A stretch of DNA of 63,614 nt, filler included. It is 17 parts of 17 records of this genome, joined end to end, with 100 filler letters (N's around TTAATTAATTAA, not from the genome) between each part and the next. Parts side by side here need not be neighbours in the genome. Positions count along the whole stretch, not along the records: positions 17,946 to 20,725 come from SRR9188676_1009; 16 more parts are not named here. One strand, given 5' to 3'. Every line of letters starts with the position of its first letter. The stretch's first letter is position 1. A program made the translations under genes and the position numbers. This document shows, piece by piece, positions 4,203 to 59,976 of the stretch. Under the pieces are notes generated by a model. That model made no database searches. It had not been told where the DNA came from and saw only the letters and a list, made by a program, of their open reading frames with translations.

Positions 4203-4302
4203 NNNNNNNNNNNNNNNNNNNNNNNNNNNNNNNNNNNNNNNNNNNNTTAATTAATTAANNNNNNNNNNNNNNNNNNNNNNNNNNNNNNNNNNNNNNNNNN
4301 NN
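4203..4302. other. Artificial contig-joining spacer (first of 16)
   Basis: N44-TTAATTAATTAA-N44, with stops in all six frames. Identical spacers start at 4203, 7151, 10037, 14298, 17846, 20726, 23971, 28619, 31422, 34996, 37849, 40746, 45871, 49516, 56299 and 60046. Confidence 0.98.
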
Positions 4303-6900: not shown

Positions 6901-7814
6901 CTTTTGTTTTTTGTCCCTCAACTTTTCTCTTTCTTTTCCTATTTATTCATTTCATCTCCTTTCGCTGTCGCTAGTTGTTGATATATTCTGGAAATTCCTT
7001 AGAATTTTACATAAAGATCATAACGGTTCTGGCTGACATAGTTTCAAATACCAGTGTCAATATTCGTAGCTATATCCCGTTCCATACCCGTGCCTAAATC
7101 TACACCTACAAAAAATCGAGAAAAAAAATCTGGGGATTAAAATGAAAGATNNNNNNNNNNNNNNNNNNNNNNNNNNNNNNNNNNNNNNNNNNNNTTAATT
7201 AATTAANNNNNNNNNNNNNNNNNNNNNNNNNNNNNNNNNNNNNNNNNNNNGGGGGGGGGGGGGGGGGGGAACCATTGTCTTTGTGTAGAAAAAAAGACAC
7301 AGCAAGAGAAGTGGAATAGTGAGATGAACCCGATTCCTACGAGTCCAACTATACTTGAGGAATAATAATAAGGACCGATCGATGTCAAAGCTGAACCCGA
7401 GAAGGGGTATGTGGGGTGAGGTTGATTGAGTATATCAATCTCAACATCAAGCAGTTCCCCTATCTGGCGAAAGGAATGCACCTGACGTTGATGTTGGTGG
7501 TGCGCTCGTAAAGAACGTTTGAGATTGTTATAGGGGCATTTTAGTCCGGACCTGAAGGTTGCGCTGGTCGCTCCCTAAACATCGTCAGGTCGCGTACGCC
7601 CGCCAGCATTCCTCTTGTCCCCTTTCTTTGAGAGGTCGAGGGCGAGTGGGGCATGATTGAGATTCTCAGAAGAAGAAAAAAGAAACAGCGCTGGCAGCAG
7701 CATCCAGCTGGCAGCTGGAAGGGTATATTGTCGTATATATGGCCGACCGATCGGTTCGGAGATTTGGTTCCGTAACTTTGATAGTATGATGTGATGATAT
7801 GCCAGAATTGTATG

Positions 7815-9948: not shown

Positions 9949-10781
9949 GTATGCATGTGATCCCATCAGTAATTCAGCCGACGACCAAAAGTTACATCTG
10001 GCCTCGTCTCAACATTTTTTTTTTTTTTTTTTTTTTNNNNNNNNNNNNNNNNNNNNNNNNNNNNNNNNNNNNNNNNNNNNTTAATTAATTAANNNNNNNN
10101 NNNNNNNNNNNNNNNNNNNNNNNNNNNNNNNNNNNNTTTATTTTGACTCTGAAAATTTCTCGCTGTTATAAAAAAAAAAAAATTGAAATCAGAAAATAAA
10201 ATTGAAAAATGAGGGTTTATTCCCTGATTTTGAGCCGAATAACATCTGACAGTGTCTTCCGAGGGTCATCGGACCAAGCAACATCGGAAGGGTGCCTGGA
10301 CCTCACACTCGCATCAGACACCTGAGGGCCGGATTTTGTCCTGGTGAGTGATATCGATTTACTCCTTGAGATTCGATTGATTCTCTTCTAGCCCCCAATT
10401 AAAACGCAAATCGGTTCAGCGTCGGATTGGGGAAAATTGATATTCGCAGAACGACAAGCTCTGAACTTTCTGAAGGCAGCAGCGATCTCCAAGAGACCAG
10501 ACTGCTCTGAGAACATTGATGCAAAATATGTAGCGGAGACAGGACACTACTAATCATAAAAAGTCCCGACTTTACGTCCGGTCATTGATTCAAAAAGATG
10601 AAATTATTCAGTGTATTTCGCTGAGGCAGGGGCGTTTGAATTTGTCTCTCATTTGAATTCCTTCATAAAAGAAGAATAAAATAAGCACATAAATTCCCGC
10701 AATCAATGAATATAAATAGTTTTTGTTTTTATTCATAGTCTGGCCTCAGTGTGCATGCATAAAAGCGAGGAGGGCACGTAC

Positions 10782-12064
10782 TGGTCTCGCGAGGGTCGAG
10801 AAGAGAGCCCAAAGCCAGGGGCATCAAATGCAATGACACGGGCAAAGCGGCCGAGCAATGGGACGCATCTATCCCACACAAAGCAGCTCGCACCATAGCC
10901 ATGGATGAATACCACGGTGCTTCCGGGCGCAGATGCCTCTCCAATCAGATGACTGGGTTTCTTCGAGTCCATGTAGTGAATGTTCACGCCATATACACGC
11001 AGGAAAAGACTGTCTTCTCGCGCAAGAGCCTTGTAAATTCCATTTCCTTCTTCTTCACCTTCACTGGACATCTCATCGCTGGATATAGTTTGGATTAGAG
11101 AAGAAGAGCGGACCTTGAGAGTGTTGAGTGAAGAAACTCATTAATCCACTTTCAAAAATCATTGAAATTGGAAGCCATGATGATGTTCGATCGATTCATA
11201 TTTGAGAGATGTGAGATGGTGAAATGAATTCAGTGCGATGTGGAATGGGGGGTTGCTGAGAGATCACAATGGAAATTCCGCTGTTGTTGGTTTTCGAAAG
11301 AAGAGATTTTTAGAGAGAGAGAAAGTTGCATACATGTCTTTGACTGCAGCACTGCCAGAGAGCAGGTTGTAGTCATTCCCTAATCTCTTTCGGCGGAGAT
11401 GGGTCACCACAGAGAAATAGGACAACACTTCACCCCATGTCGCAAACCAGGACACAGCGAGTAAAGAAATCGCCTATCAAAGAATAGAATGATATGAGGA
11501 TTATTTCTCATACATGGACAGAGAATGGAAGAAAAGAGAGTGTACTTTTCCGGGGGGATCAAATTCGCCAAACGAATATGCGTAACACTTCAAGGAAAGA
11601 TAGATTGTCGAAATCACAGACATGAAAACCACCACCTAAGCAATAAGAGGTTATTAGCACTCTTCTTTTAAAAGATATGAAAGGATGGAACCTACCCAAA
11701 CCGGAACAGAAGAGAATGAATCACGAAAGAAGAACACTGTAGTCATGATGATACATCTGATTGCAGAAAGAATCTATGAAGATACATAAAGAAATGTATT
11801 GAGTGCATGAATATTCGGGGAAATGCAAGCTGATGAACATACAACAAGGTCGAATAATGTGGTTTTCATGTTGAACTCGCTCATTTCGTGTCCAATATCA
11901 GAATCTCCAGCCAAAAAATATATCAATAGAGAAACCAATAGATCTATAGGGCCCAGCAGTCGGGGTAATGATGAAGTAACAAGATAGCCGACAAAATTGG
12001 CCACAAAAACAATCGTCCCCCATCTTCTTCTCCAAGTGACGCGATCAAAGCAGTCGCATCCCAT
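10782..12064 (-). CDS. Alpha/beta hydrolase with N-terminal membrane-spanning region, 3' partial
   Basis: Hydrophobic first exon from ATG 12064. A later exon has GVNIHY, VVFIHGYGASCFVW and RVIAFDAPGFGLSSRP (Abhydrolase_1 N-terminal motifs). Middle exons not fully resolved. Confidence 0.75.
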
Positions 12065-12241
12065 TGCAGGGATGTATTAGAAAGCACTCAATTGAAGGGA
12101 TAAATACAGATTAATTAACAAGAATCTTGGAGAAATGAACAGAAAAATCAAGAAGCGGCCGCGTCGAGAGAGAGTTCAAGAAATTCCACAAGATTGTTCG
12201 AGAAAATTCGGTGACCGATCGAAAGAGTTCTCAGCAGCAGA

Positions 12242-13912
12242 ATGGCGACTTTGCTTCGTAATAACTTGAACCCCCGTGTTCTTGCTGCCGAATATGCAGT
12301 CCGAGGCGAACTTGTGCTCCGTGCCATGCAATACCGAGAGAAGCTTAAACAAGGATTCAAGCTTCCTTTCACTGAAATCGTGGCATGCAACATTGGCAAT
12401 CCACACTCATTGAATCAAATGCCCATCACCTACATCCGTCAAGTTCTCTCCTGCGTAGTGAACCCTTCATTGATCGGCCATCCTGAATCAAAGAAGCTAT
12501 TCCCTCAAGATGCCTTGAACCGTGCCCAGAAGTACCTGTGTAGCATCCCAGGTGGTCTCGGTGCTTACAGTGAAAGCCAAGGTCTTGATGTTGTTCGAGA
12601 TGTCAGTCTCTCGGTTTTTATGCAAAACATTGCATTCTCCCTCATTTTTTTCGCTCCGTCTTCTCAAACTCTCTTCCTCGACTTCCCAGGAGGTTGCTGC
12701 ATTCATTCAAAATCGAGATGGATACCCAAGCTCTCGCGACAGCATCTTTATCTCAGGTCTCTCACTCTTACTGCTGATTCATAAGTATTCACTTCTTCTC
12801 ATACCTCCGAATTCATCTCTTCAGACGGTGCCTCCCCTGCGGTGCAACGTGCCATCAAGCTGTTGATCCGTGACTCCTCCGATGGCATTTTGATCCCTCT
12901 TCCCCAATATCCTCTTTATTCCGCGACTCTCTCTGTGCAAGGCGGTTCTCCCATTGGATACTATCTCGACGAAGAGAACGACTGGAGTTTGTCTATTGCT
13001 GAACTGACTCGGTCTATCACTGAGGCTCGGAAGCGAGGTGTCCACCCCCGTGCTTTGGTGGTTATTAACCCTGGTAAGTCTCGGAGTGGGGAACTGGAAG
13101 ATACACCTCTCTATCTCAGACTTTGTGGTCGAATTGAGTCCAGGTCAAAAATTTACCCTGCTTTTTTGCTTGCCATAATTTCGCTGAAAGGGTCCCATTT
13201 TGCGGAAATACCAATTTCATGCTTTTCAAAAGGCATGACATCATTGTACAAAAATATCAACATTTATGTCCATCTGCACCGGTTGAATCATGCGTCACAT
13301 CAGTAATGATCGAGCTATTTATAAGGCATTCCAATTGAGAAAAAATTGATCTTCACTAAACTCTATGATTCGACCTTTATTTCAATCAACATGTCGAAGG
13401 CTCACCTTGAGTCATTACCGGGCTCTCAAACTTCAATTCACCCCTGAGTTGGTCATATTGGGGGTGAGCCCCGTGAGACCGTGTTGTTTCTGTGCTGTAC
13501 ATCATGCTGACGCGCTAGACACTTGTATCGCCTATATGTGTGCTCTTTTGGACCCCTCATCATCTCTGCTCTTCCTTCCTCCGATCATGTTTTTCGATTT
13601 CATCCCCAACCGCCCATGACGCATCCACACCGCCGCAATTGAGTTTTCAATAATCGAAATCGCATTACTTCCGATTCATTGGAATCCTTTTTCTGTATGG
13701 TTGTATTGGTGTGTTTGTTTTCATTTGTTATATGTACTATTCATCGACTTTACCTGAGCGATTTGAATTTGCGACACGTGATTGACATGCTGATGTGATT
13801 TATAATGTGATGTGCACAGGCAACCCGACTGGGCAGTGCCTGTCCGAGAGTGCCATGCGTGACATCATTGACTTCTGCCATCGCCAGAAGGTCGTGCTGT
13901 TGGCTGATGAAG
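12242..13912 (+). CDS. GPT: Alanine aminotransferase (class I PLP-dependent), 3' partial
   Basis: Exons 12242-12601, 12690-12756, 12825-13073, 13820-13912 join in frame. Motifs EYAVRGE, CNIGNP, GAYSESQG, DGASPAV, PQYPLYSA, VINPGNPTGQ and LLADE. Confidence 0.95.
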
Positions 13913-15082
13913 GTAAGCATTCCTCTGCTGTGGTGGTGTGGGGCGCAACGGACCCATGTGCCTGAGGGAGAAGAATGAAGAAACCAATGTGGGTGGTGGG
14001 TCGGTGATCCAGCGCAGCAGGGGGAGGAGTGGGAGGTGCACTGTAGAACAAGAATTCCATTCCATCCGTTTCGACTCGTCGGAATCCATCGAAGATGACA
14101 CTGTCATCAATTCTTTCCGGAACTATCGAAAATACGTGCATAGGCTGCATATCGAAAGGAGTGCTCCTAAGAGTGGTGGAAGAGTAGTATTTGATTGAGG
14201 TCTTGCTTGTCCAATGAGGCTAGGTTTGGGAGGATACTTTCCCGCCAAGTTATCAACTTGTTTCCATTCTCTCTCTCTCCCTCACACACACACACACNNN
14301 NNNNNNNNNNNNNNNNNNNNNNNNNNNNNNNNNNNNNNNNNTTAATTAATTAANNNNNNNNNNNNNNNNNNNNNNNNNNNNNNNNNNNNNNNNNNNNAAA
14401 AAAAAATCGAAATGTAAAATGTCCATGGACATAATATGGGGGGGATTTTCCTGAACCCCCCAAATATTTTTTTCGATTTTATAGATGTAAATTTCCGAGG
14501 AATTTTCAGAGGCAAAAGAAAAGAAGAGATTTACAGAGACGACCCTTCATCTCATGAAAGTCAGTAAACCTTGATGAAAATCACCACAATAACCAGTCAT
14601 CAACAGACATTGATAGTGATTGATAGCGACATAAGTCATACTCGATCTCACAACCTCACTACAGGCAGTTATCATGATACAAGCGATACAACCATTTCTG
14701 CATTGTTGAGATGAACTGAAACTCAATAATTACGAATGCCTGGTGTGAATAATCTCAATAAGAAGAAAGAAGTCGGCGACGACTGGACACTCATAAACGA
14801 CAACAACCAGCATGATCATCATCAAGGAGATATCAGCATCAGCATTATCCCCCACCTCCCCACTCCCCGGAAATCGCTGTCAAAATCATTTACAACCGTG
14901 TATGGAGCGTTGAGAGGTGCTGTCTCTCATATGACACCAAATGACGACCAAATTCACCAAAAATGTTGCAGGCATGCCAACTGTCAGGGTCAGGCGAAAG
15001 TCAGATGATGCATTTTTAGATTTATAAGGGAGATGGGAAGATGGGAATGGTAGGAGCGGGGGGGGGGAAGGGAGGTGCGTAC

Positions 15083-17693: not shown

Positions 17694-18118
17694 GTACGAT
17701 AATTATTCACGCTAACCCTTGTTGTTATCATTCTATTTATGCCTGAGGCTGTATCACTTTACGCGATAAAAATAAAAATAAATCAAGCATCCTTTGGAAA
17801 ATTTTCCCTAAAGGATTTTTTTTATCGCAACCTCTGATTTTTTCCNNNNNNNNNNNNNNNNNNNNNNNNNNNNNNNNNNNNNNNNNNNNTTAATTAATTA
17901 ANNNNNNNNNNNNNNNNNNNNNNNNNNNNNNNNNNNNNNNNNNNNTTCCTCGGAATTTTCAGAGTCAAAACAAAGTGCTATAAAATGACTGACGATTGAC
18001 TCGGTCCGGACTCTACTCGAAAACCTTACCTAAGACCAACAATGATCACATAACTGGGTATCTGTAGCGTGGGGAGTTTCAGTGAGTGAGATGTTGGCAC
18101 CAGAGAATAGCATCGTAC

Positions 18119-20705
18119 CTTCGAGGTGAAATGCATCCAAACGAAAGAAATGGAGCCAGATTGGAAGTACGTGAGCGTGCCACCTGTTCATGCCCGAGCT
18201 CGTGCCGGTGGTGTGCATAGTCCTGCGTCAGCACAAGCCATGAACAATGAGACAGAGATGATAAGAGAAAAGATCGACACCATGCACAACAATGAGGGCA
18301 AACTCAAAAGTCAAACGGGTGCGTTGACAAACCTTCAGGTGGTCTTGGGCCCAGACATAGTCCTTGAGCCTGCGTAGTGCCTCCGTCTCGCCGCCGACGA
18401 TTCGTGTGGGCTCGGCCACGCTGGGTGCAGACTCCGGAGTAGGCACAGTGACTGGATTGATGAGCTGTCCGATCTCGCTGGCTTTGAATCGGCCAGTGTC
18501 CAGCGCACTGCGATGGGTGAATGTGTCCGTGGAGCCGCCGTCCTTCGCGCGGGACGTCCCGATTTGATTTGATTGGGGGACTGCAGTCGAGGGTGGGGTA
18601 TTGTGGAGAAGCTGAAGCGCAAGGGATGGAATGGCCGACGAGGCAACAGAGTCATTATCAGAATACACAGACAGATGGTCATGGAGATCATCATCCGCAT
18701 TGGAACTTTGGTCGGGCTCGATGTATATACTATCGGAATCATGCATGTCAGAATACAGATCGGAGTCCCGAGTTTGTGATCCAGATTCGTCGAGACCGTA
18801 ATATAGGCCGAGAGTTTCATCTATCAAGGGGGACTGCATCGGCGGCTGAGACTGCGATTGAGTTGCGATAATACGAGCCTGATCAATATTTTTGGCCAGT
18901 TTAGCACGCACGGGTGTGGAGGGCAGTGAGCGAGGCACATATGGTGGTGTACTCGAGGGGTTGCTGCTCGTCGCAGCTTTGGACTTGGACAATGATGAGG
19001 GTGTCATAGACCGCGGCTTGCCTCGCTTCTTATTCATTGGCCCGGCAGATGTTGGACGGGAAATGTCCGGGGTGATCGACTTGGACGGTGGCGACCACGG
19101 TCTAGCTATCGTGATTGCGTCTAGTTTCTTCAATAATGTCTCAGGATCCTCCCTGAGATTCGTTTCTAAAGGTAAGGAAGCATAGCTTCTCTGAGAGCTG
19201 GGGTCGCTGGGTTGAGCTGAAGTGGAACCGGCGGATGGATCACGAGAAGACTTTGTCCGGCTGCTGCGGTTCAGGTTCATGGAGGCTGGAGTGCCACTGT
19301 CCTTGTGGGTATCGGACTGACTATCTCGAACTGGGTGGAGTTCAATCGCCTCAAGCACCATTTCGGGCTGCTTGGTGACGTACAACAGTCCATCAAGCCC
19401 GTTCATCACAGTGTGTTGAAGCCATTCGGATGGGTCCGAGGGTCCAGGCGATGAGGCATTCGCAGAGAGTGCTCGAGACCTAGCGGGCCCAGCACTGCCT
19501 GGTTTCTTGCTTGGGTTTGCGCTACGTTGATTGAGCTTCTGTTGTTGGACTGAATCGAGGCCAATTTCTGCAAACGCCTGGCTGAGAGACTTTTTGGAAG
19601 GCTCAGAGCTTGGATTCGAATGTTTTTGCCGAATGTACCCTTTCTCGACTAAGTTGGAAGCCGGTCGTTTCTTTTTCTTTTTTCTGAGAATTTCTCTGTC
19701 CAAGTCCTGTAATACAGTCTGAGTGAACTCGGCGCTCCAATTAGCGGGAGCTCCATGCCCATCCACCCAGGTGCGAAATTTTTGTCCAACAATACCATCA
19801 TTATGTACGGCAAATAGGATGGCATTCAGGTGTGGAAATCGCTTCAACGGCTCAAGCTCTGGGTCATCGAGAATGGAAGATAAAGATGTGGGCAGCGACC
19901 GTGATAGGGGATTGGATGATTTCGGTCGCTTCAAATGTTTGGAATTCTTGTTATTCGGAGCACGAGCAAGGTCAAGAGTAATAGGCACTGGTGTTGTGAA
20001 GTCATTGGGAGCTGTTGATGCAGTGTGAGACGAAGCGGAAGAAGGTATCGCGGCTGCAGACTTGGGGCGTAGCGCTATGCGTGTAGGACGAGTCTTACTG
20101 AGTGTAGGTGTCACGGGACTTGCCGTATTGGGAGTCAGAGAATCCGATTGTGATTGTGATAAGATTGGGTGATTAGATTGGGTGATGTTGGCTGCGGAAG
20201 GCGCATCGACAGCAGGGATGACAGACAGGCGGATACGCGAAGGCGGTGCAGAGTGCACTCGGGGACCAACAGGCACGGTATGAATGGTGTCTGCAAAGAA
20301 GAAGAAGAAAAAAAAATGCAGAGAAACAGGAGCGATCAGACTTCGTATTCAGCTGCAGTTTAGCCGAGGACACAGTTTATGGCCTCTATGTAATCATTGA
20401 TGCGAGAATGGAAAAGATTCATACCGCGGACGAAAGTTGGTGCATATTCAAGTGTCCAATCTTGTAAAGAGGATATCTGAGCAGAGGAGAAGCCCAAATC
20501 CTTCAGCGTGGGGAAATATGAAAAATCGTCTTGAAGGAAAGGGAGTTTTGGAGTCAAGGTTGGTGGTACAGGTGGCAATTTCGATGGCGGTTTCAACAGC
20601 GGTCGCACTTGGCATTGTGAATCGATGAAGTTTTCGAATTCAGCAAAGCATTCCGGTAGATCCTGCAAGAGTGAAGCCAAAGATGGACATTCGTCGTGGA
20701 TCAGA
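18119..20705 (-). CDS. Cryptochrome-DASH / DNA photolyase family protein with a very large linker insertion, partial at both ends
   Basis: Exons 20705-20425, 20290-18333 and 18222-18119 join in frame. Motifs LIH...DLPECFAEFENFID...VRP...PSKLPPVP...FPTLKDLG, then GGETEALRRLKDYVWAQDHLK|DY...TSNLAPFLSFGCISPR. Confidence 0.8.
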
Positions 20706-21572
20706 CTACAACAAAATGAAATGTTNNNNNNNNNNNNNNNNNNNNNNNNNNNNNNNNNNNNNNNNNNNNTTAATTAATTAANNNNNNNNNNNNNNNNNNN
20801 NNNNNNNNNNNNNNNNNNNNNNNNNAGAAAGGAAAGGAAAGAAAGGAAAGGAAAGGAGAAAATACGAACAGAATCACCCAATATTCAGAATCAAGCAGTG
20901 GAGAGAAGTCAAGTCAGAGGAGGGCAATATGAGGGGGAAAATTTTCAGAAAATCTTTCCAATGAAGCAAGACAATTTCGAGGAATGATCATTTCTTTCTT
21001 TTTTCCCCAAATGATGCTAAGTGCTGGATATGTTGTTGATGAGTGATGAAGGAAGGCTCTGAGATAAACATACCCGTTGAAGTGTGAATATCATGCTCAG
21101 ACTTGTCGCTATCGCAAAGACAATCAATACACTGCAGAAGAGGGAAAGCAAGAGTCAGGAGAATATTTGAGTGAGGAGATTTCGGGGAAAATAAGAATCT
21201 TCCGTTTATTTTTTAAACAACATCCTATCATTGTAATAAATTGGTTTTCGCACGGATAACTCGGAAAGTCACTCTCTTGACTCCTGACCCACTTTCGTGG
21301 ACCCAGTTCACACGATCCACGATCCGTGCAGAAATTTATGGATAAAACTGAATAGTGGCGACAGAGAATAAAGCGTTCAAGTTCAAATGATTAAGCAGAT
21401 TTGCAATCCACACTAGAGATCCGTTATACCGTTCTCTTTGTTCGAAGACATCAACAATATCATATGACCACGATATTGTAGAACATCTTTAAGAAAAAGT
21501 AGATTTTAAAAAGAATACCAAAATGCTCCTTCTCAAGCGATTTCGACCCCTTGGGCAAAAGGAATTACGTAC

Positions 21573-22270
21573 ACTGCCTCCGCGCGTTTGATGTTGTGAA
21601 TCGGAAAATAGATGAGGGGCAATACAATCAGCCTGAGGGATTATCAAAGTGAGAATCAAAGTTGTTTTAAACGAGGATGAAGGATATGTTCATACACCCA
21701 GATCATGCACAATATCGTCACAAACGAGAGATACTGCACCCATGAGGAGCTTGAGCAGAACAGATGAGAGCGACAAACAGGAGTGTAGCCAAATCGGACT
21801 GAGGCAAACATAAAGAATATGAGAATCACAGTTTAGATTGAATCAACAAGCAAGGCAGGAATGAAGACGAATAACATACTCAAGTAGAGTGTGCGGCAGA
21901 TTTCACAGGTTAAATGTTCTTGGGGATCGACTCCATCACGAAGGACTCGTATTTGTCTACATATAGGTTATATTTAAGATATATAATTAATGATTCATGA
22001 GCGGTATGAAGGATACCTCGCTTTAATCCAATCCGCAAGGCATTCAAGGTGCACAAGAGAGGTGCAACTGCACACTTGATAAAGTCCTTCGTAGCCATCT
22101 TCAAAAGCAGGTTGCCGACAAATACGACACTCGATTTCATCAACACTGCAATAATGTTTTCCTCCAATGAATAAACTAGGATTTGCCTGTGACGCACAGT
22201 AACCGCACCTCCTTGTATCACTATTGTCTGGGCCTCGAGTGCCAAGCTCAAGATCTAACTTTTCTGACAT
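21573..22270 (-). CDS. RING-CH (RINGv / MARCH-type) membrane E3 ubiquitin ligase, 3' end unresolved
   Basis: CRIC...CSCTSLVHLECLADWI, then a spliced CEIC completes a C4HC3 finger. Later exons encode a hydrophobic helix (YLSFVTILCMIWVLIVLPLIYF). Confidence 0.8.
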
Positions 22271-22525: not shown

Positions 22526-23675
22526 ATGTCGAATGCTCGCTTGTTGAGACTCACTGTGAGGCAGATCTTCTCATCATTTTCCAAGAGAACCGTCTACACA
22601 TGGGGCGCAAATGAAGCTGGCCAGCTCGGAATTCCGATCGAGCAAAAAACAGTTGCCACTCCGCGCCTTGTTCCTGCATTACTTCAACATGATGTCGTCC
22701 AGGTCCTCCTCCTTCCGCTTTCTCTTCGGAGCTCTGGAATTTGTCTTATCTCATGCATATAGTACAGGTTGCATGTGGTGCTCGTCATTCAGCTTTTGTC
22801 ACTGAGGAAGGCGACCTGTACATATCTGGCTTAGGAATGAACAATACCCCACAGCTCGTTCGAGAACTTCAAGGCTCGGTCACGCACGTTTCCTGTGGCA
22901 GTGATTTCACGGTTGCAGTGTGCAAGGATGGTGATGTTTTCGCCTTTGGAGCGGGCAGTGAAGGACAGTTAGGTAAAGATCCGAGCACCCTTGAAAAGTA
23001 AGTCCATGCTTCTGGTTCTCTTTGGAATTTTAGGGCCTTTCGCTCTCACCTTTCTTGAGAATAACATTTAAAACAATGCATTTGGGAACGTTTGACCCTA
23101 TCTGTTTGAGACTATTTGGTTCTTCATTATCGAATACCTTCTTCATCCTGCTTCTCGATTGACCAGAAAAAGATTAAGGACCGCGCTCGGCTAATTGTCA
23201 GGGAAAATGAAAAATGTTGACTATTCAGTTTGAATATTGCAACGCAATATCCTAGGTTGCAAGTCTTCGCGAATCGAAACCTTTGCAATCCAAATGACAT
23301 CGTTCTTGTGTTGCTGACGGGTGTGCATTGAATTGATGTTTTTGAACGTTAGACCCATAATGAGCTGATTTATCTAGTTGTGTTATTGGACATGAGCTTA
23401 TTGATTTATTTAGCCACCTACTTGTGTTTCAAGCTCGGATAATGTTCATTTATGACATATTTATGTATGTATGTATTTATTTATTTATTGATCTATTTGT
23501 GTGTGTGTGTATTTGTGTTTTCCGGTAGCGGAAAGTGGGAGATGACCCCAAGCGCAGTCAAGGGACTGTCATCTGCGGGCGTGGTGAAAGTGGCATGCGG
23601 CAACAGGCATAGCATCGCCCTCACTAAGGACGGCAGGCTATACTCATGGGGCACCTCTACAAAGCATGTACTCGG
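22526..23675 (+). CDS. RCC1-repeat (beta-propeller) protein with possible mitochondrial presequence, 3' partial
   Basis: Exons 22526-22702, 22768-22997, 23529-23675. Repeats VYTWGANEAGQLG, VACGARHS, VSCGSDFT, VFAFGAGSEGQLG, VACGNRHS and LYSWG. N-terminus is Arg/Ser/Leu-rich with no acidic residues. Confidence 0.9.
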
Positions 23676-23914
23676 GTACGAATCTTCCTGTTTTAATAAC
23701 CTTTGTTATATACCTTGGGCTGGTACTCATGGGGAACTTCTACGAAGCATGTACTCGGGTACGAATCTTAGACCCGGTTCAGTTTTAATACCCTTTGTTA
23801 TATACCTTTAGGATTGCTGGTTTAACCCGCTAATAAACCCCTCATAATACCTTGAGATGGCATGATATGATCATGGGGCACCTCTACAAAGCCTATATGT
23901 ACTCGGCTACAAAG
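23641..23914 (+). repeat. Imperfect tandem copies of the RCC1 exon end plus 5' splice site
   Basis: TACTCATGGGG(C/A)AC(C/T)TCTAC(A/G)AAGCATGTACTCGGGTACGAATCTT at 23641 and 23724 (period 83), with a degenerate third copy at about 23871. Confidence 0.9.
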
Positions 23915-24302: not shown

Positions 24303-27300
24303 CTGATCGGAGTCGAGATAGAGCCTGGCCAGCTTGAGCTGTATCTGCAAGTGATGCGTATCGATGCGGGGCGAGCGGGGTGCAGATCTGGTCGAAGCTG
24401 AGGTAGCGGTAGCGGTAGCGGTGCGGGGTGCGGCCGGGGATGCTGACGTGCCCTGCGCTGACGTTTGCCGCCGTGTCTGGTTGTGGGTCAGCTCCACGAG
24501 CGCCGCGCGCAGGTACCCCTCAGCCTCAACGAACTGCCCGAGCTCGCTGTGCGCCTGCGTGTGCACAGAGAGAGCAGAGGGAGGGAAACAAAAGAAAAGA
24601 AAATGGAGAATGATCAATTTACATTTGGGAAGTGGAGGAAGTGATGAAAAATTCATCATGAATGGAACATAATTTTAAAAAGTCTCATGATGAAAGTCAG
24701 AAAGCTGGTGGGGAGAAGATCGACGCCTTAAACTGTCTCTCCCTCACACATTCGTGATTTAGTACATAACCAAGTCATGCTCACCTGGCTGATGAGTTCA
24801 GAGACGTAAACAAACTCAGCAATTTTGTCATCGCGGATCTGAATCATCCTTGTTCTGCCTGGTTGAGAGTGGTGTGTGTCTTGCCCGTTCGAGCCGGCCA
24901 GGCCAAAGCCCTGCCCGTGTGAGTGTGTCTGGCTGTGGCCATGTGCATCGCCGTGCGCTGTCTTCGTGTCCTCTGAGCCCGGCGTGCCACGCGTCTTGAG
25001 CCGCATGCGACTCGCACCCTTCTTCGATGATGACTGGTGGTGTGGTGATGGCGCGGGAGCCGGGCTCGAGGAGGATGAGGATGGTTTGGACAGCAGCGGC
25101 ACTGCAACCGCACTGGAGTCCGAGGACGGCGACGACACCAGGTCGTGCAGGAACGCGTGATGCAACGATGTCGCATGGAACTGGCTCGAGGTACTAGCCT
25201 TGTAGCTCTCGAGAATTTTGGCGTAGTACCCTATAAATATCAAGAGTGAGAATTAAGAGCAAGAAAGCGAATCAAGGGAATGCGCAAATGTGCGATATGG
25301 ATTCCAACAAAATATTGACCCAATACTGACCTAGGGCCCTGGACACATCACCGTGTTTCGAACACACGTCAGCCAGGGAGCGGTACAGTGCCGGGCACTC
25401 CGACCGGTGGCGCAGCTTGTGAGTCAGCACCGCGCCCTCGTACATGTGCACCGCATAGCTGTACTTGCCGTTCTCGAGCAGTGTGTCCCCGTAACTGCAC
25501 ACAATGAAACACAAGACCACCATGACGATATCAACACATGCAAACATATGCCCCGCGAGTTCACAACGCAATGAACTTGAAGCTCGAATCGATGAGAAAC
25601 TAGAACGACCAAGTGAACAATGAAGAGAGCAAGCGAGAGGATTGAAGAAAGACGGAGGGACATCGAGGCGTACGCAATGAGCAGTGAGGTTCCGAGGGGG
25701 GTGAGTAGTGGTGGAGGACCGCCGGGCAGGCCGGCAGGGAACACGGAGCTGCAGGTGTCAGTGATGTGCAGCGCCTCGAACAGCATGCGCTCGGCCGTGG
25801 CGTGGTCGCCCTTGTCGTGACGAGAGTAGTGTGCGAGTGCAAACATGGCGCGTGCTTTGAGTGCATGCGACGAGGGGATGAGCGGGTAGATGGCGCGCAG
25901 CATCTCCACGCGGTAGTTGACGTCCGTCAGCAGCCGGTCCAGGCAACCCGTGCGGCTGGCCGTGTGCGAGTGACACGACGAGCCCAGATACGGCGTGCTC
26001 GGAGATGTCACCCCCGCCGCGCCCGACACTCCGGCGATTCCCTCGGGGAGAGTGGACCGGGAGTGCTGATGGCGCGGTGCGCTGTGCGAGTCGTTCAGGG
26101 GGCACGATTTCGGGGGGGTGCTGGCCGGCGAGTGTAGGCCGAACCCGCTGCCTGAAGCCCCATCTGCGTACAGCACGGCAAGCATGGAGCATAAGAGTAC
26201 AGACATCGTGACGTAGATAATGATGATCAAGCAAGAGACCGTCCTGCTGTCAGTGAACAGCAGCCATGGGTGGCTATAATCATAGTGAGGTAAGTGTATG
26301 TTATCCAGGTCATTATACCATCATAATTGTGCAGGTTTATTGTTGATGATATTTCACCGCAGGTAGTATGCAGCGCTGCTAGTGCTCTGCAAGAAATCAA
26401 AGCGTCAATCGCGCGCAAATATTTCAGTGAAAATGTGCTGAACATGCTCTATCCTGCTGGAGATAACTTGCTTAGCACTCCCAGGACTCTTTGAGTCCCC
26501 AATGTTGGAGTTCTTCAACATGGTGTTTACCCCATTTCGACACCAGCACTGAGGTTAAATATATGGGGAATTGAGAGCACTGTGACATTAGATTGCACTT
26601 ACACTATATACAGAGGCCTACTCAGTATGGTCAGTCACGTACTAGGCGAGAATGAGGTTGAGCGGACCATGACAGGGCCCTGTGCTGATGTGGCAGAGAA
26701 GGGTGCGGCGTAGGAGTCCGGCAAGGTGCCCCCCGGCTGGGCTGGCTGGTTATTCTTGCTCATGACGGGCGACGAGGACGCAGACACCGATGTGCCCGAG
26801 GCCGCAGCTGCGGAGGGCACTGCCGCTGGGTCTGAGAACGTTCGCAGCGCTGGACGCGTGGTCCGCTTGCGTCCAATGCTACCGTTGCGGTCAAGCAAGC
26901 CGTACACGCTACTCGACACCTGTCACATCGCACAAATCAACACCATCGAGTATCCAAAAAGAATGGAAGATAGAGCGGAAATATAATAGTCTAGACAAAG
27001 CGACGCGAATGAGAGGGGGAGCGGGGGGAGGGGGGGGAATGGTGTATGAGAACGGATGGAACTAGCACTCACAGTCATAATGGAGGTGGAACGCAAGGTC
27101 ATGTCTCGATAGTCATGTGCCCAGCCATCATTGTCGGACGAGCTGTCGTCGCTCTCTGAGCTCCACTCTTGTCGCGGGCAGGAGCGCGTGTGCATTCCTC
27201 CTAGCGAGCCCGAGCGTGTGGCATTGCCATCCAGGTCAGTGCTCTCTGGGACGGGGTCCAGTGTGAACGGGGAGAGCCCACACAGCAGCAGGTGCAGGCT

Positions 27301-28269
27301 GGTCAGAGCCCAGGCCTGCAAAAGTAAAGGATGCCAGGGAGGAATTCCAGCACTCTGCAAAATGGGTGACAGGACAATGAGATTTCGGCATTGGCTGGAT
27401 GCATGGCTGCAACGCTGTCTGTCTGCGATACGTACGGAGGGTATGTCGAGGACGCTGTCGGTGTGCACGGGGCGGGGGCATGAGGCAAATGCGCCTTCCG
27501 AGGCCTGTGCTGATGACGAGGAGGCTTTACATGGAGTGCGGAATGGATTTGATTCTGTGTTGGGTGAGGGGATGCGGTCACCCGCGGGGTCGTCACGCGG
27601 CGCGAAGTCATTGCGGACAGGGCTGCTGGCGGCACCGAGGGTCACGGCAGGCGCAACGTCTTGAGCGGCTGCCAATGTGCGGCGGGACCTCTGATCGGGC
27701 GTGGGCGGGATGATCTCGATGCGCATGTAGCTGTGTGCGAGGCTCTGAGTCCTGGACGGACCGGGAGGTGAGGCTGATGCAGAAGGGGAAAGACTCTGCG
27801 CCTGTGAAGCCAAGCGGCCACTCCCCCCGCTACTACTGCCAGTGCGCTGCAAGCCGTATGCCGCAGTCCGGTCAGTCCACACAGCATCTGAAGAGGTGTG
27901 ACGAACACCCATTCCTGACATTTGCATATTAGAGTCCACGTCGATGTTGTTGGGAGAACCACTGTCCGTCCCACACACAGATGGGTCTGCATCCGAGGTA
28001 GATGAGGGAAATATGCCCGCAGGGTGGGGATACATGCGGAAAGGAGAGGTCTGTGCAGCGCAGTTCTCGGGCTCCGGGGACAGGGGCGGGCCTGGTGGAG
28101 TGGCGCTGGTCGGGGTCGGGGTGTGGGTCCGGGGCGGGGAAGAACAACGTGAGGGCGGCGGAGAGGTCCCGCGCGATCGAGGTGGCATGGAGTAGGAAGG
28201 CAGTGATGCAGCTGCGTGGAAAATGCGGCAGTACGCACTTTCTAATTTGCCGATTGCGGTGGATGGAAG
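24303..28269 (-). CDS. Large protein with S/P-rich disordered regions and TPR-like helical repeats, partial at both ends
   Basis: GC-rich exons bounded by AG/GT. Helical motifs ARAMFALAHY...AERMLFEAL, YGDTLLENGKYSYAVHMYE, AHSELGQFVEAEGYLRAAL and QLKLARLYL. Confidence 0.55.
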
Positions 28270-28718
28270 CTGGAGTGGAGCACATAAGCAGATTACAGGT
28301 GTTCACAACATCGGATTACAAGGTACAGAAGTGGAGAAAAGATGAGAGAAATTATGAGAGAAGGTTGTCCAAAAAAAATGCGACAGAAGATGGGCACAGC
28401 ATGAATGAATTTCCAGAACGAATACAACGACCGTGTCGTACGAAAAACGCTCGGAAAAAAGTTGTCAGCTTCGATTTCGATTTGTTTTTTCCATTGTTTT
28501 TCCTTTTTTTCTTTTGCAATTCATTTAGGAATTTTCAGAGTCAAAATAAAGTGCTCGAAAATGTCTGACAGTTCCTCAACCGACCTCGAGACCTTGGGCT
28601 CTCTTCGGAAACCGTCCANNNNNNNNNNNNNNNNNNNNNNNNNNNNNNNNNNNNNNNNNNNNTTAATTAATTAANNNNNNNNNNNNNNNNNNNNNNNNNN
28701 NNNNNNNNNNNNNNNNNN

Positions 28719-47666: not shown

Positions 47667-48178
47667 GTCCATTGTTATGCTAATTGACTTTCCTTCATTT
47701 TGCTTCTTGAACTTTTGTCGTTGTGGCATCACGTGGCATCTTCGCATCGTTTTGATGCATTGTGGTTTTCGGTTTTTTTCCCCCACGTTTTTCGATTTTT
47801 ATTGTGTAATACTGATTTTTTACTTCATCCTTATAATTTATATAATCGAGCTCTGAAAGATATCGCTCTCTAAAATAACACCTATTAAGTCAAGAAAAAA
47901 TAAAGATCATCTTGTTCTTGCGGGCATGATATTTGAGGATAGTTCAGAAGTGGACATGGTGTAGCAAGTCTCTCAGATGAATTCAATTGTATCGGCTGTT
48001 GTCAATCGAGATTTGCTGCCCGCTAAGGGATTAAGAAGCAAGGAAAGCACTGGTGGAAACAAAGCGTCGAGAATATCTACCAAGGGGGGTAGAAATCAAA
48101 AAGCTATTTCGAGTTTGTTGAAATTGTGAGGGGTAAATCAATCGTACAAAGCATGTGGAAACCTCTGTCTTTGTAGTC

Positions 48179-49252
48179 ATGCCATTGCCTCTCTTCACGG
48201 GTGCATCTATTCTACCGACTTGGAGCTTCACTTATTCACCTCCTGTTGTATCATATTCCCAATTTTCCAAATCGATTGAGACTATTCCAGAGGTTCCAAC
48301 ACCATCTTTCCTCAATCAACCACGACCTCTTGGCGAATTGACTCTGCATGTTCGCGACTACCAAGCAGAGGTATTGGAACATGCGAAAAAAACAAATACG
48401 ATTGCGTTTTTGCGCACAGGCGCTGGCAAGACACTCATCGCAGTCATGAGTATCAGATACGAATATGAACAACATATCCTTCCACATAGTAAGGGATTTT
48501 TCTCTTTTGTTTCATTATTATTTTTTAACTTACGTTTATTCTCTCTTTTGCAAGAGAGTTTCCCTGATAGGCGTCTGGCTGTCATGCTTGTGCCCAAAGT
48601 GAATCTTGTCAAACAACAAGCAGAAGTCATTCAGAAGAACACTGTTCGTCCTGTCTTCATGTTTGCTTTTAAAAAGATATCTAACTGCAATGCTATTTCT
48701 TTTTAGAATTTACGAGTTGGGGAGTACCATGGAAAAAAAACTGAACGATGGACAGATGTGAAATGGCGTAATGAAGTCGCAAATGTGGATGTAATGGTCG
48801 TCACACCTCAGGTATTTCTGGCTTGTAATTTTGAGAGTAATGGCATGGGTTATTATGGTCAGATCCGAGGGATTGTGACGTCACCCGGGCCGTCGGTATC
48901 GAGGTGATGGCACTAGACACCTGTCAGAATTCCCTGTGCTATTGCAGTTTTAATAACGTCACTCTTGCCCGATGAAAAGTGCAAAAAGCTGTTATTTCTA
49001 TTTAATCTTTCTGATGTGCTCTTGTTGTCTCTCGCACAGATTTTCTTAGATGCTCTCCGAAATGATATTCTCACTCTGGCTCAAGTCTACCTCTTGATCT
49101 TCGACGAGTGCCATCACATCAACGGCAAGGATAATTACCGTATCATTATGAAGGAACATTACTTCTCTCTTGCTGAGAATGACCGACCGAAAGTTTTGGG
49201 TCTAAGTGCGTCGCTTATTAAATCCAGCGTCAAGAATCCCTCAGTTGACAAG
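48179..49252 (+). CDS. Dicer-like DExD/H helicase N-terminal region, 3' partial
   Basis: Spliced motifs RDYQAEV, NTIAFLRTGAGKT, LVPKVNLVKQQ, VVTPQ|IFLD, LLIFDECHH, YRIIMKEHY and RPKVLGLSAS match the Dicer helicase. The RNase III domains are not in the contig and the start codon is uncertain. Confidence 0.8.
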
Positions 49253-49712
49253 GTACGATATTTTCCCGAACTTAAGCTGAATTAAATTGGGTAGGTAGAC
49301 GTTCGCTCAACCCTGTTTGTATCCCTCTTTGCCTTGAGTTATAATTTTCCCGAATAGGAAAACGAATGTCCAGGCCTTGCCCAAACTCATTAAAGAGGTC
49401 AGACGCGGAGATTTGGTAGAATCGCTTCGATTTTTATTTTGGGATGGCTCAATGCTCAATCATCAAAATATAATCCCTCTCAATCCCTCATTCTCTCTCC
49501 CTCTCTCTCCCTCTCNNNNNNNNNNNNNNNNNNNNNNNNNNNNNNNNNNNNNNNNNNNNTTAATTAATTAANNNNNNNNNNNNNNNNNNNNNNNNNNNNN
49601 NNNNNNNNNNNNNNNGTGGTTTTGTGTGAATGGAAATGGTAGAACGTGAATGAGCATGTAGGCTATATGAGAAGATGATTATTCTTATCAAAACATCTTT
49701 ACAGATGCATAC

Positions 49713-52700
49713 CTGGAAGTTGACCTGCAGCTGGCTGTTGTCGCCGAGGGACTGCATGGTGAGAGAGAAGGGCGCGGACCCGAGGTCGTTCTGGGCGGAC
49801 AGCGTCATCGTGGGGGTGTTGCTGGGCACAACCGTCAGCACGTACCCGTCAACATCAACGTCATCCTGCAACACAGAACATACATACACACACACAGACA
49901 GGAGAGAGTGTGAGAGTGTGTGTGTGCGTGTGTGTGAGAGAGATAACGATCGATAACCTGATAGATAACGGCTCAATGCAGGCAATAGAAATTGACTTCG
50001 AGAGGGGGGAAAAACGATTCTGATTTACTAGACTGATCCATGCTCTTACAATTACTGACTTAGCACAACTACAAGTTGTTCCTTAAAGGTGCTAGCAAGG
50101 CCGGTTGTGTAGAGAGGGTCAGGACATACAAGACTCTCATCAACAGTGATACATTGATAATAATCAAGACAACATCCTCGCATAACTCATAATGAATCGA
50201 CAAGCAAGTCATGAGTCGAATATCATGATACAACAGGCATTTCGTCACAAGCAGCGCATTAGTTGCTCCTTAAACCCTTAAAACCAACTCACAAAAGAAG
50301 AGGTGGATGTTCCGGTGACGTACTCTGAAGCGGACAATCACGTTGGGCTCGGTGGTAGCTGTGGCATCGCTACGCAGAGACAGGTCAAAGGCTTGGCTCA
50401 GGTCTGTGTTGTCGTAGGCCTCGAAGATGGCTGTGGACGATGACGTCGGGTTCACAGTCAGTCGGTACCCATCATCACCAACATTGTCCCTGGAAAACAC
50501 ACATATCTACCAAGTTAGTTTATGTTCTCTTACTCTATAGTAACTTGGGCAGTTCAAATCTGGTATATGATTAATAGATTTTGGTTTTGTTCGCTCGCTT
50601 GGATACCGGATAGTTACATAGATGGGTGTAAGGTAGTTTACCATGTGTTTACGAGCCTCAGAATGTGTGCTGTACACATCCCTGCTCTACTTTTTCAATA
50701 TTAGTTGCGAGTAGTCGAAGCATTTTCGGATACCCATTCCATTGCCATATAATTCCCTCATTTATACTGATTGATCGTTGCAAAACATATTCACGAAGGT
50801 TTGGTGATTCTAATCAGTGTTTGCAGTCGGTCTGAAAGATCAAAACAAAATTACGAATTGCCAAACCCGAAAATAGTCATTATGTTTGAGAATACCGTGC
50901 CTCGCTCTGAAAGATCAGGTCGAAAGCTGATAGAAGAAACCCATCTCAACAACCAAACAGATGATGATGTACCTGAAAGTAGTCATGAGGCTCTGTCCAG
51001 TGCCGTAGCTCTGGAAGATCAAGTCGAAGGGCGCGACGTCTCCGTCACCAATGTTGATTGCGCTCATCATGAACTGCGGCGTGGCATCCGTGGTGACGTT
51101 CAGCTGGTACCCGTCCGAGCCAGACTCGTCCATGAACTTCAGGTTCACGTTCTGGTCATTTCCCTTGGAGGTCAGGAAGCCATCCCAAACGACATCTGAG
51201 CTGGGCCCATCCACTCTCACGGTCAAAGAGGCCTTGTTCTGCCCTGTGGTCACGGTGGTGCGGTATCCGTCATACCCGTCGGTCATCACGGAAACAATTT
51301 TACCCATGGGGCCGGATGTGAGGGTCATGGTGGAGTCTAGGCCATATCCAGAGGTGGAGCTCGCTGTGAGGTCAAGCATGGTGCGCGGGGACTTATATAC
51401 ATCATCGGGGTATGACACGGCCACGACGTTTTGCAAATTCGGGCTACGACCTTTACGAATTGCGATGCTATCGCCATTGGCAAAGTTGCTAGTGATAGCC
51501 TTATCCAAAATCAAGTCGGTCTCCGTCCCTGCGACAGTCACCTTGAGAATCTTGTATGCTGTGGTGAGACCAGAGAGATACACTTCATCTCCAACCTCAG
51601 CGGTGGGCTGCCAGATCTTGATTGCTGCGCTCGCGGTGAACCCAGTCGAAACAGGCCTGTCAAGAGTAAGCAAAGTGCGCTGCGTTCCGGCCAAGTAGAT
51701 GCTCTCGACCTTCAGAATGGTCCAGATATTCGTACCGCTGTCACCCGTGACAATATCACCCACAGTGAACTTGGACTGGTCCACGATATTTGCTAATCGC
51801 ACGGTGTTTGCGTCCGTGGTGGTGGTGGCGTAGGGGTTGACGGTGACGCTCGCCGAGGCCGAGGTCACGCTGATGGTACAGGCCAGGGTGCACCCCAGGT
51901 TCACAGTGCTGATCGTGAAGGTGGTAGCACCCGAAGAGAATGCACGGTGAATAGTGATGCGGAACTGACGTCCATTTGCAGGCGGGGAGGAGCCTGCTGC
52001 CACGGTCACGTACACATTGGAGCCGCTGTTCATGGCATTGATGGAGGTCTGCAACTCGCTGGCTGTGACGTCATAGGATTCAACAATCTGCTGGCCGCCC
52101 CAAGTGAGCCGGAACGAGCCGGAGACCACTGAGGCGGTGTCGCCGGAGAAGGAAATGTCCTGCACTTGGCCAGAGACCAATGAAGCATCCACGGTGGTGC
52201 CAGCGGACTGGTAGTTGGTGTTCAACGCGCGGTCCAAGCGGATCTGCTTGCGGCCGGCGCCCCAGGCATTCGAGTCGGGGCCTTCTATGCCAGTGCCGTA
52301 CTTGAGAGTGTACGAGGCGAGCTGCTTGCGGAAGTACAGGGCAGCACCACCGTGAGCCATACTGTACTTGCCCAGGGCACTGTCGTCGAGAATCACGGCG
52401 GCTTCGCTCGAGGAGCCCGACGAGAGCACAGTGAGTTGCGAGTTGGCATTAGTGCCTGTGGACACAATGCGCACGTCCGCGGTGACACCGGACTGCAGTG
52501 GCGAGATGGTATACTTGGAGTAATCGTCCTGAGTAGTTGCCTGCTGGGAGGTGGTGTCATCCATACCGTATGTTTGCAAGTCCGTGGATACGCGCACGGA
52601 GTAACCGTCAGTGCTATCGGACATGCTGAACACCACATCGGAGTTATGGCCCGAGGTCAAAGCGGCCGAGGTCATGGAGTTGTACTGGATGGCAGAACCG

Positions 52701-55700: not shown

Positions 55701-56209
55701 AGCACCGTGATGTCGGTCACTTTCACGGTCTGGAGGGGCTCGAGCGGGTTAGACACGGCGCCGTTGATGCTGTCAAAGAAGATCTCCCAGCCATACAGGT
55801 TGCGGGATGTATCCACAGGGTACTGGGCAACGGTGCAGTAGTCTAGATTGTCCATGCTCTCCAAGTAGCTTTCCATGGTGGCGGCGCTTGCACTGACGCT
55901 GAACGGATAAGAGGTGGTCGAATCGCGGGCCACGCCCGTCACGTCATTCACGGTGCCTGCGAGGTCAGGGTGCGTGAGAGAGAGCCCGAAGAAGCCGCCC
56001 ACGGTGGCGCCGGCGGGGCCTGACACTGCCACATACTGCGTCTCGATCTGGCGCCCCGTGGCACTGACCACAAGGTTCTGGTCCAGAACGAGCTCGTGCA
56101 CGTTGGAGTTGCCGCCCTGGTGGGCCTGGATGCCCAGTACCTTGAATGTGATGTACTTGCAGCTGCCTGACGCGCAGGTTGTGCTCACGTACTGCCCTTC
56201 GATGAAAAT
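49713..56209 (-). CDS. Giant S/T/A/G/V/D-rich modular beta-strand protein (>1800 aa), partial at both ends
   Basis: Exons 56209-50973, 50489-50324 and 49865-49713 join in frame through GT-AG introns, with strong GC3 bias. Recurrent motifs DGY, RKQL/RQLL, VGDE and RKG. Confidence 0.85.
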
Positions 56210-56708
56210 CTGATCGATGGAACACCACATCCACAATCACAAGAGCAGGTTGAATAAATAAAATCACTCATAATCACCAAAATCAGTGCAGAATCTATNN
56301 NNNNNNNNNNNNNNNNNNNNNNNNNNNNNNNNNNNNNNNNNNTTAATTAATTAANNNNNNNNNNNNNNNNNNNNNNNNNNNNNNNNNNNNNNNNNNNNCA
56401 TGAATATTTTCTTCAACACGTTTCTTTTTCCATTTCTGTGGAGCTCTGTGTTCTTAATCTGGATCGATGGAAATGACAGAATCAGTTTTAGCCGTTTTTG
56501 GCACCTGAGATATTGTTTGGATTAGCTGGAGCTCTTTTTTGAAGCGCATAATGATGTGGTATTTTTCAGCAAAAACCATTCGACCATTTTTTTTCACAAC
56601 GTCAGTCGAAATTGGCAGTTCCTCATGTCTCTGTGTGGATGTCTCTCTGTGTACATGCGTGTTCGTGTGTGCCTATGTGTGTGTATCTTCTTTTCGCTCA
56701 CTCCCCAG

Positions 56709-59700: not shown

Positions 59701-59976
59701 TATTGATCCCCACCCTCACACCTACCCCGGCCCCCACCCCAATCCACATGGCCATGTGCGTATCCATGACAATGACAACCACCACACATCCCATAGCCCT
59801 CACGCCCTTTCCTCACAAATTTCTCACCATACCTCTGCAACCGCACACCTAAGAAGACGGCCTGAGAGCGATAGTCATCGCAATACGGCCAATGGTCATG
59901 ATGATAGCGGTCATGATGATAACATGGCACGCACACGCCGGTTCATGCGTGAGGGCTTTCAATTGGGCCCGTTACG
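56709..59976 (+). CDS. Uncharacterised protein with a long S/H/D/T/P-rich disordered exon, partial
   Basis: Short exon 56709-56769 (NIVFQDRHLTRARYLTPTRK) splices in phase 0 to QAVLVIHDVHF... (acceptor 57223). About 900 open codons follow to a GTACGA donor at 59977. Confidence 0.55.
57005..57262 (+). repeat. Three imperfect copies of a 3' splice site plus exon start
   Basis: Pyrimidine tract-CAG|CAAGCNGTNNTCGTGATCC...CATTTCGA, with exon starts at 57017, 57113 and 57224. Confidence 0.9.

Follow-up and report, generated by a model that had tools for sequence, protein, structure and literature searches.

Can the connector between the two domains of a photolyase/cryptochrome-type protein take up an in-frame insertion of some 650 residues? 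The question is raised by a DASH-type gene that lies on the minus strand of a single contig within a 63,614-base window, the term being used here for the whole stretch of DNA that was analyzed. This window is made up of 17 contigs of 2.8-6.7 kb with 16 identical linkers (N44-TTAATTAATTAA-N44) between them and, because these linkers join contigs, features on opposite sides of a linker are not genomic neighbors. The contig bearing the DASH-type gene is bordered by the N runs of two linkers (17846-17889/17902-17945 and 20726-20769/20782-20825). Both ends of the gene are cut by the ends of this 2780-bp contig, so that the N-terminal domain and most of the domain that binds flavin adenine dinucleotide (FAD) lie outside our view. 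What can be read is the region between them, and here the connector of a gene of divergent DASH type carries an in-frame insertion of about 650 codons that is real and statistically solid.

The gene model consists of three exons and the two introns between them (Table 1). Exon A comprises the last part of the connector region through the motif FPTLKDLG and 22 further residues; upstream of it, 20 nt of intron precede the contig end. Intron 1 contains stops in the frame of exon A. The insert lies on exon B, the 3' end of which encodes the GGETEALRRLKDYVWAQDHLK helix. The junction of exons A and B is in frame (R-D-T) and so is that of exons B and C, and the spliced model runs through 780 codons with no stop. 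After exon C, behind either of two possible acceptors, one frame is open to the contig end (..HFIALCFDSENSEE). The first-pass annotation of this locus had placed two motifs roughly 650 open codons apart, mostly on one exon of 1958 nt, and our coordinates and motifs agree with it: between FPTLKDLG at 20515-20492 and GGETEAL, which starts at 18395 on the minus strand, there are 654 residues, almost all of them on exon B.

To which family do the flanks of this long stretch belong? When they were compared with 18950 NCBIfam models, TIGR02765, the model for DASH cryptochromes, was the only match for either flank. For exon A the match covered positions 142-198 of the profile (E 2.3e-6), for the final 46 residues of exon B positions 205-228 (E 0.02) and for a longer piece positions 206-236 (E 0.005), such that the two flanks occupy adjacent positions of the profile in the right order. 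Protein Data Bank (PDB) sequences gave a similar picture. The top match of exon A was the DASH protein from Synechocystis, 1np7 (residues 146-226, E 0.034), with chains of Arabidopsis CRY3 (2j4d/2ijg) lower in the same list, and the GGETEAL piece was found in 6kii (residues 212-234) and again in 1np7 (residues 213-234). The tail of exon A (..SSAQISSLQDW.., 20440-20492, minus strand) was placed by phmmer on the GGETAGLARLQDY helix of 1np7; an old partial duplication at the insertion point was considered and rejected, as the two stretches share 3 of 16 identities by eye with no repeat at the DNA level, which we judged to be chance.

A second line of evidence comes from a DASH profile of our own. 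Bacterial loci were fetched with a pattern back-translated from a stretch of 1np7, and the profile was built from the complete frames of 420-530 residues present at 43 of the 48 loci, the other five being truncated or too short. Among 1585 targets, the spliced model matched this profile with an E value of 1.4e-14. The alignment falls into two pieces, one covering profile positions 147-194 (model residues 12-59) and the other positions 210-262 (residues 724-780). The second piece spans intron 2, and its score, 21.2 bits for the exon B tail alone, rises to 36.3 bits when exon C, which as part of domain 2 aligns to positions 233-262 of our hidden Markov model (HMM), is joined to it through ..TSNLAPFLSFGCISPR. 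This rise supports both the splice at intron 2 and the TSNLAPFLSFGCISPR motif and lends support to the claim, made when the locus was first annotated, that a motif of the FAD domain follows on the next exon. The part of the FAD domain that is present on the contig amounts to its first ~57 residues (positions 210-262 of our own HMM, 205-236 of TIGR02765); the cofactor-contacting residues and the Trp chain are located past the contig end.

Between positions 194 and 210 of our own profile, the protein encoded here has 664 residues, compared with 14-16 in all 43 bacterial DASH proteins. This stretch is an anomaly of the gene and not a ground to exclude it from the DASH family. The first annotation had described the flanks as photolyase- or CRY-DASH-like and had named a failure of the flanks to align with the photolyase family as the result that would speak against it; both flanks do align, and the sole NCBIfam match, the top PDB match and our own profile all point to DASH proteins. 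The flanks belong to the photolyase/cryptochrome family and, although divergent, to its DASH type; for the subtype the evidence is weak, the fragments being short.

The position of the flanks also bears on the idea that an S/P-rich coding sequence with no relation to the DASH gene has been fused to it in the assembly. With contigs of only a few kilobases the assembly is highly fragmented, and S/P/T-rich frames are common in it. However, the insert has sequence matching DASH proteins on either side, correctly ordered and adjacent in the profile, the frame continues unbroken across the 3' junction and at the 5' junction there is an intron of correct phase. Furthermore, there is no repeat at the join and the insert is unlike the other frames of the window. 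We regard such a chimera as very improbable.

A gene on another contig provided the means to judge the introns of the model and the origin of the DNA. It encodes an alanine aminotransferase (12242-13911, plus strand, with a frame at 12215-12781), the best match of which is a transcript-derived protein labelled Rhodelphis limneticus (EukProt EP00735), and all four of its exon blocks agree with residues 1-256 of that protein without a single difference. The window therefore probably stems from Rhodelphis limneticus or a near-identical organism. Rhodelphis is described as a lineage that is sister to red algae and has a plastid but does not photosynthesize (PMC7348690) and as a predatory flagellate with a relic plastid (PMC7348690; PMC12495952). 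The alanine aminotransferase gene has introns of 88, 68 and 746 nt, all with GT-AG ends and with the donors GTCAGT, GTCTCT and GTAAGT. As its exons are identical to a known protein, these three introns can be taken as verified and the introns of the DASH-type gene can be compared with them. They fit: both are of the GT-AG type and their lengths of 134 and 110 nt lie inside the range of 68-746 nt.

Is the long frame indeed coding? From one stop to the next (18228-20348), the frame containing exon B runs through 706 open codons. When the mononucleotides of the contig were shuffled 2000 times and all six frames examined, the longest frame had a mean length of 131 codons and a maximum of 293, and at the base composition of the contig 652 open codons would arise by chance with P ~2e-11. 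A codon-usage model trained on the other long frames of the window was applied to 25 windows of 150 nt and in 22 of them ranked the proposed frame above the two shifted ones, and introns 1 and 2 are both more AT-rich than exon B, which has a GC content of 0.53. Taken together, the open-frame statistics and the codon model mean that most of exon B has to be coding, with room for short hidden in-frame introns; that the exon is translated over its whole length is likely from the same evidence.

These results have to be weighed against the view that part of exon B, or nearly all of it in one isoform, is spliced out, and that the protein consequently has a shorter insert or a canonical connector. 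Donor sequences verified in this genome are loose, the frame is not favored in three windows of the codon test, and a hidden intron of ~40 codons would be open by chance with P ~0.2. If a phase-0 GTCCGC that follows ..APTF were joined to a phase-0 ..GCCGAG/ that precedes PTRIVGGETE, the frame would be kept and the connector would be of near-normal length. This GTCCGC is a weak donor, however, the candidate skipping acceptor has no pyrimidine tract, and many GT/AG pairs are present by chance in 2 kb. Any hidden intron within the single open frame would need a length divisible by three and no stops. Nothing would keep the frame of a constitutive intron open: a constitutively removed piece of at least 100 codons would do so with P ~0.02, and all 652 codons with the far smaller probability given above. 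We consider removal of part or nearly all of exon B by splicing unlikely.

In composition, the insert is dominated by a few residues (S 16%, P 11%, A 8%, L 8%, T 7%), has no cysteine and has a pI of 9.46. The first-pass description of an S/P/T-rich segment with a basic run and an acidic patch was thus correct, and further basic clusters are present (Table 1). The run RKKKKKR resembles a nuclear localization signal, a likeness that we infer from the motif alone. When the translation of the whole of exon B was modelled as a single sequence with AlphaFold2, the mean predicted local distance difference test (pLDDT) score was 40.8 and 566 of the 652 residues stayed below 50. Helices were predicted for residues 143-205, 286-299, 382-390 and 636-651 of the exon B translation, the last of these being the DASH family's own GGETEAL helix. 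An island within the insert that had looked globular in the first annotation did not live up to this description: its blocks reached pLDDT values of 46-55 in the model of the whole exon, a piece of 196 residues modelled alone had a mean of 41.4, no Pfam family was matched, and the best ESM Atlas score for residues 125-215 of exon B was 0.80, which is chance level. The low pLDDT values and the chance-level Atlas scores provide no evidence for a globular module, and what we see in the models is compatible with scattered helices in a largely disordered chain.

Searches for relatives were equally unproductive. Homologs of the insert were found neither among 1.84 billion representative proteins (E up to 0.001) nor among proteins of 1142-3260 residues, and 55 pattern matches in JGI metagenome contigs did not yield a single relative. 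The window contains no paralog of the insert (best E 1.8), and none of 34 candidates of 164-2000 residues proved to be a homolog of exon A. Three tandem repeats were recorded, all of them short (15-31 nt, with periods of 6, 6 and 13). Around the insert, terminal inverted repeats are lacking and direct repeats reach only 15 nt, as would be expected by chance. Because flanking and terminal repeats are absent, an origin of the insert by transposition or duplication was dropped.

A large insertion beside a conserved motif of a host protein also brings to mind an intein or a mobile-element remnant that has a reading frame of its own. Inteins start with Cys or Ser, end with His-Asn and are followed by Cys, Ser or Thr. 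The ends of the insert, ..TFVR/DTIH.. and ..PTRIV/GGE.., have neither a Cys/Ser start nor a His-Asn end, there is no cysteine anywhere within it, and Hint, homing-endonuclease, transposase or other Pfam families were not matched at E values up to 1. An identity as an intein was rejected on these grounds, and the lack of terminal inverted or flanking direct repeats and of any homolog speaks against a mobile element. Taken as a whole, an explanation of this kind is hardly credible.

The explanation that we favor, and hold to be fairly probable, is that a divergent DASH-type protein of a Rhodelphis-like heterotrophic flagellate has acquired, in its connector, a disordered insertion that is specific to the lineage and loops out. 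The contig would carry the middle part of a DASH-type gene in which ~650 in-frame residues have been added to the connector linking the N-terminal alpha/beta domain to the helical FAD domain, the point of insertion lying immediately ahead of the GGE(T/S) helix with which the helical domain begins. The insertion would be translated as part of the protein, would be largely disordered and would loop out from the surface. Since it would loop out, the two ends of the loop could still meet and the photolyase fold could still form, a geometry that we infer from the place of the insertion. With its S/P/T-rich make-up, its three basic clusters, its acidic Ser/Asp patch and its few helices, the segment might serve as a flexible tether equipped with short linear motifs for nuclear import, phosphorylation and the binding of partners and would then be an internal counterpart of the disordered C-terminal tails of cryptochromes. 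A nearly neutral expansion of a kind common in this genome would explain the same features equally well, and any function of the insert could only be conjectured from its sequence. Two of the other four frames of at least 400 codons in the window have an S/T/P content of 0.33-0.36, compared with 0.33 in the insert. Such S/T/P-rich frames being common in the genome, the more ordinary explanation, a lineage-specific expansion, is favored.

Several observations weigh against the explanation just given. The bit scores of the fragments against TIGR02765 (26.7, 13.8 and 15.8) are far below the cut-off of 317 bits for this model, a comparison in which only ~120 of the 431 profile positions are present. 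With Pfam, the three exon translations gave no family at E values up to 1, so that of the HMM searches proposed at the outset the one with the CRY-DASH model matched both flanks and the one with Pfam came back empty. Exon C alone had no match in PDB or NCBIfam and reached an E value of 0.17 with our own DASH profile; the piece of 22 residues at the 3' end of the contig likewise lacks PDB and NCBIfam matches. The sequences behind our own profile were picked by their GGETA...DYFW motif, which inflates the score of the second flank, whereas the TIGR02765 matches are free of this bias. In the codon test, the windows starting at 20138, 19163 and 19088 do not favor the frame, and these three weak windows leave room for short hidden introns. 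Disorder is not proven by a low pLDDT when only one sequence was modelled, and an intact photolyase fold is assumed here for a protein whose N-terminal domain and most of whose FAD domain are located beyond the contig. Finally, in collections that include the transcript-derived proteins of Rhodelphis limneticus, no match turned up to exon B among proteins of any length or to exon A among proteins of 164-2000 residues. As the exon-identical protein of the alanine aminotransferase gene is present in this set, the transcript of the DASH-type gene must be rare, unassembled or absent there; we take the missing match as a weak sign of a rare or absent transcript.

The same missing match would be expected if the gene were an unexpressed or decaying DASH paralog and the insertion had no function. 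The divergence of the flanks would agree with decay, and so would the motif TS.LSP, which we take to be common to other photolyases and which reads TSNLAP here. Decay is difficult to reconcile, on the other hand, with 780 modelled codons that contain neither stops nor frameshifts, with intact splice sites and correct phases, with a frame that stays open through the contig end, and with a codon usage resembling that of the other long frames of the window. We therefore consider a decaying paralog decidedly unlikely.

A bolder proposal starts from the signaling tails of cryptochromes (CCT, also CCE), which dock on the photolyase homology region and are released by light. The insert could be a disordered regulatory arm of ~650 residues beside the first helix of the FAD domain, that is, a functional internal counterpart of such a C-terminal tail. 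Import signals, an acidic phospho-patch and short helices might be exposed or hidden depending on the state of the flavin or, alternatively, the arm might tether the enzyme to chromatin or to partners. If this were true, it would make a scaffold or sensor out of a DASH-type repair enzyme in a non-photosynthetic relative of red algae, an architecture not described for the cryptochrome/photolyase family. We consider a regulatory arm rather unlikely, and a role in signaling is speculation.

Table 1. Features of the DASH-type gene and of its surroundings. Positions count along the whole window; a slash marks a splice junction and a minus sign the minus strand.
Feature	Position	Strand	Remarks
Linkers	4203-4302, 7151-7250, 10037-10136, 14298-14397, 17846-17945, 20726-20825 and ten more
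Contig with DASH-type gene	17946..20725		2780 bp; linkers on both sides join unrelated contigs
Exon A	20705-20425	-	acceptor ..TTGTTGTAG/, donor G/GTATGA
Intron 1	20424-20291	-	134 nt; GTATGA...polypyrimidine...TTTGCAG; GC 0.40
Exon B	20290-18333	-	1958 nt, 652 complete codons; acceptor ..TCTTTGCAG/, donor AAG/GTTTGT
Insert proper on exon B	18402..20290	-	~630 codons, S/P/A/L/T-rich
Basic run RKKKKKR	19665..19685	-	resembles a nuclear localization signal
Further basic clusters	KRPK 19931-19920; KKRGKPR 19031-19011	-
Island of the first-pass annotation	19674..19868	-	DDPELEPLKRFPHLNAILFAVHNDG...; helical prediction at low confidence only
Acidic Ser/Asp-rich patch	18609..18848	-	net charge -8 in each of two 40-residue blocks
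Start of helical (FAD-binding) domain	18333..18401	-	IVGGETEALRRLKDYVWAQDHLK; matches to TIGR02765, PDB and own HMM
Intron 2	18332-18223	-	110 nt; GTTTGT...GACGCAG; GC 0.455
Exon C	18222-18119	-	DYAHHRHELGHEQVARSRTSNLAPFLSFGCISPR(R), then GTACGA donor
Contig 3' end	17946..18118	-	intron of ~106 or 130 nt (two possible acceptors), then open frame

Other parts of the gene were not encountered elsewhere in the window. When 64 of the 96 frames of at least 110 amino acids were compared with Pfam, overlapping shadow frames and those of the DASH-type gene itself being omitted, no photolyase match appeared. The best other match to our own DASH HMM among 1581 frames of at least 25 amino acids had an E value of 1.9, and a search of the window by regular expression for motifs of the FAD domain did not find the rest of the gene. 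Rfam families gave no match in the window.

Of the further long frames, one that fills a whole contig (31522-34995, plus strand, ~1158 codons) contains, by eye, many Trp-containing units of ~30 residues (..F..W......), which presumably resemble the centrin-binding repeats of the Sfi1 type. The longest, at 50918-56236 on the minus strand, is open for 1773 codons, is rich in T, S, A, V and G and has no Pfam family at E values up to 0.001. Two frames, at 56888-60045 (plus strand, 1052 codons, S/T/P 0.33) and 26926-28302 (minus strand, 459 codons, S/T/P 0.36, no Pfam family), are not similar to the insert. On the contig that adjoins that of the DASH-type gene in the window, a Cys-rich frame (21995-22270, minus strand) has the look of a RING-CH zinc finger by eye, although no Pfam family was found for the frame 21913-22254 in this region, and the same contig carries a frame with RCC1 repeats (23443-23808, plus strand; PF13540, E 1.5e-11). 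A DEAD/DEAH-box helicase is also represented by fragments (48137-49282, plus strand; PF00270, E 1.6e-5 and 4.2e-5), as is an alpha/beta hydrolase (10736-11137, minus strand; PF00561, E 2.9e-7).

What would such an insertion mean for the protein family? The connector has been described as an extended loop at the protein surface, which passes across the alpha/beta domain and leads into the helical domain at its first helix (PMC11362059). In those sections of two sources that deal with additions to the photolyase/cryptochrome fold, these are described as terminal tails only (PMC8591175; PMC11362059). In the open-access literature that we searched, we met neither a photolyase or cryptochrome described as having a large insertion in its connector nor a paper treating both Rhodelphis and photolyase. 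If an internal addition exceeds the photolyase homology region in size, the end of the connector loop would be marked as a permissive site, and the insert would offer a natural test of the ability of a disordered arm to act from inside the fold. On a cautious reading, we are dealing with an ordinary lineage-specific expansion in an unusual place.

Compared with known DASH cryptochromes (TIGR02765; 1np7, CRY3 with 2j4d/2ijg/2vtb, and 6kii), the protein is alike in that its flanks align, in order, to the end of the connector and to the first helices of the FAD domain, and it is unlike them in the length of the stretch between these and in the divergence of the flanks. The C-terminal tails of cryptochromes are portrayed as poorly conserved and of undefined structure, the tail of Chlamydomonas pCRY (Cr pCRY) being the longest known with ~500 residues (PMC8591175). 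The insert resembles these tails in being long, poorly conserved and structurally undefined, and its predicted disorder is consistent with a tail. It differs from them in its position, which is internal to the photolyase homology region instead of C-terminal, and in its greater length of ~650 residues; moreover, light-dependent docking is a property known for the tails. Low-complexity or disordered insertions inside conserved enzymes of protists form a third group for comparison and are best known from Plasmodium. The insert is unlike these in that it is not a simple repeat, but it shares with them that it is in frame, lineage-specific and compositionally biased and that it is placed in a surface loop of a conserved fold.

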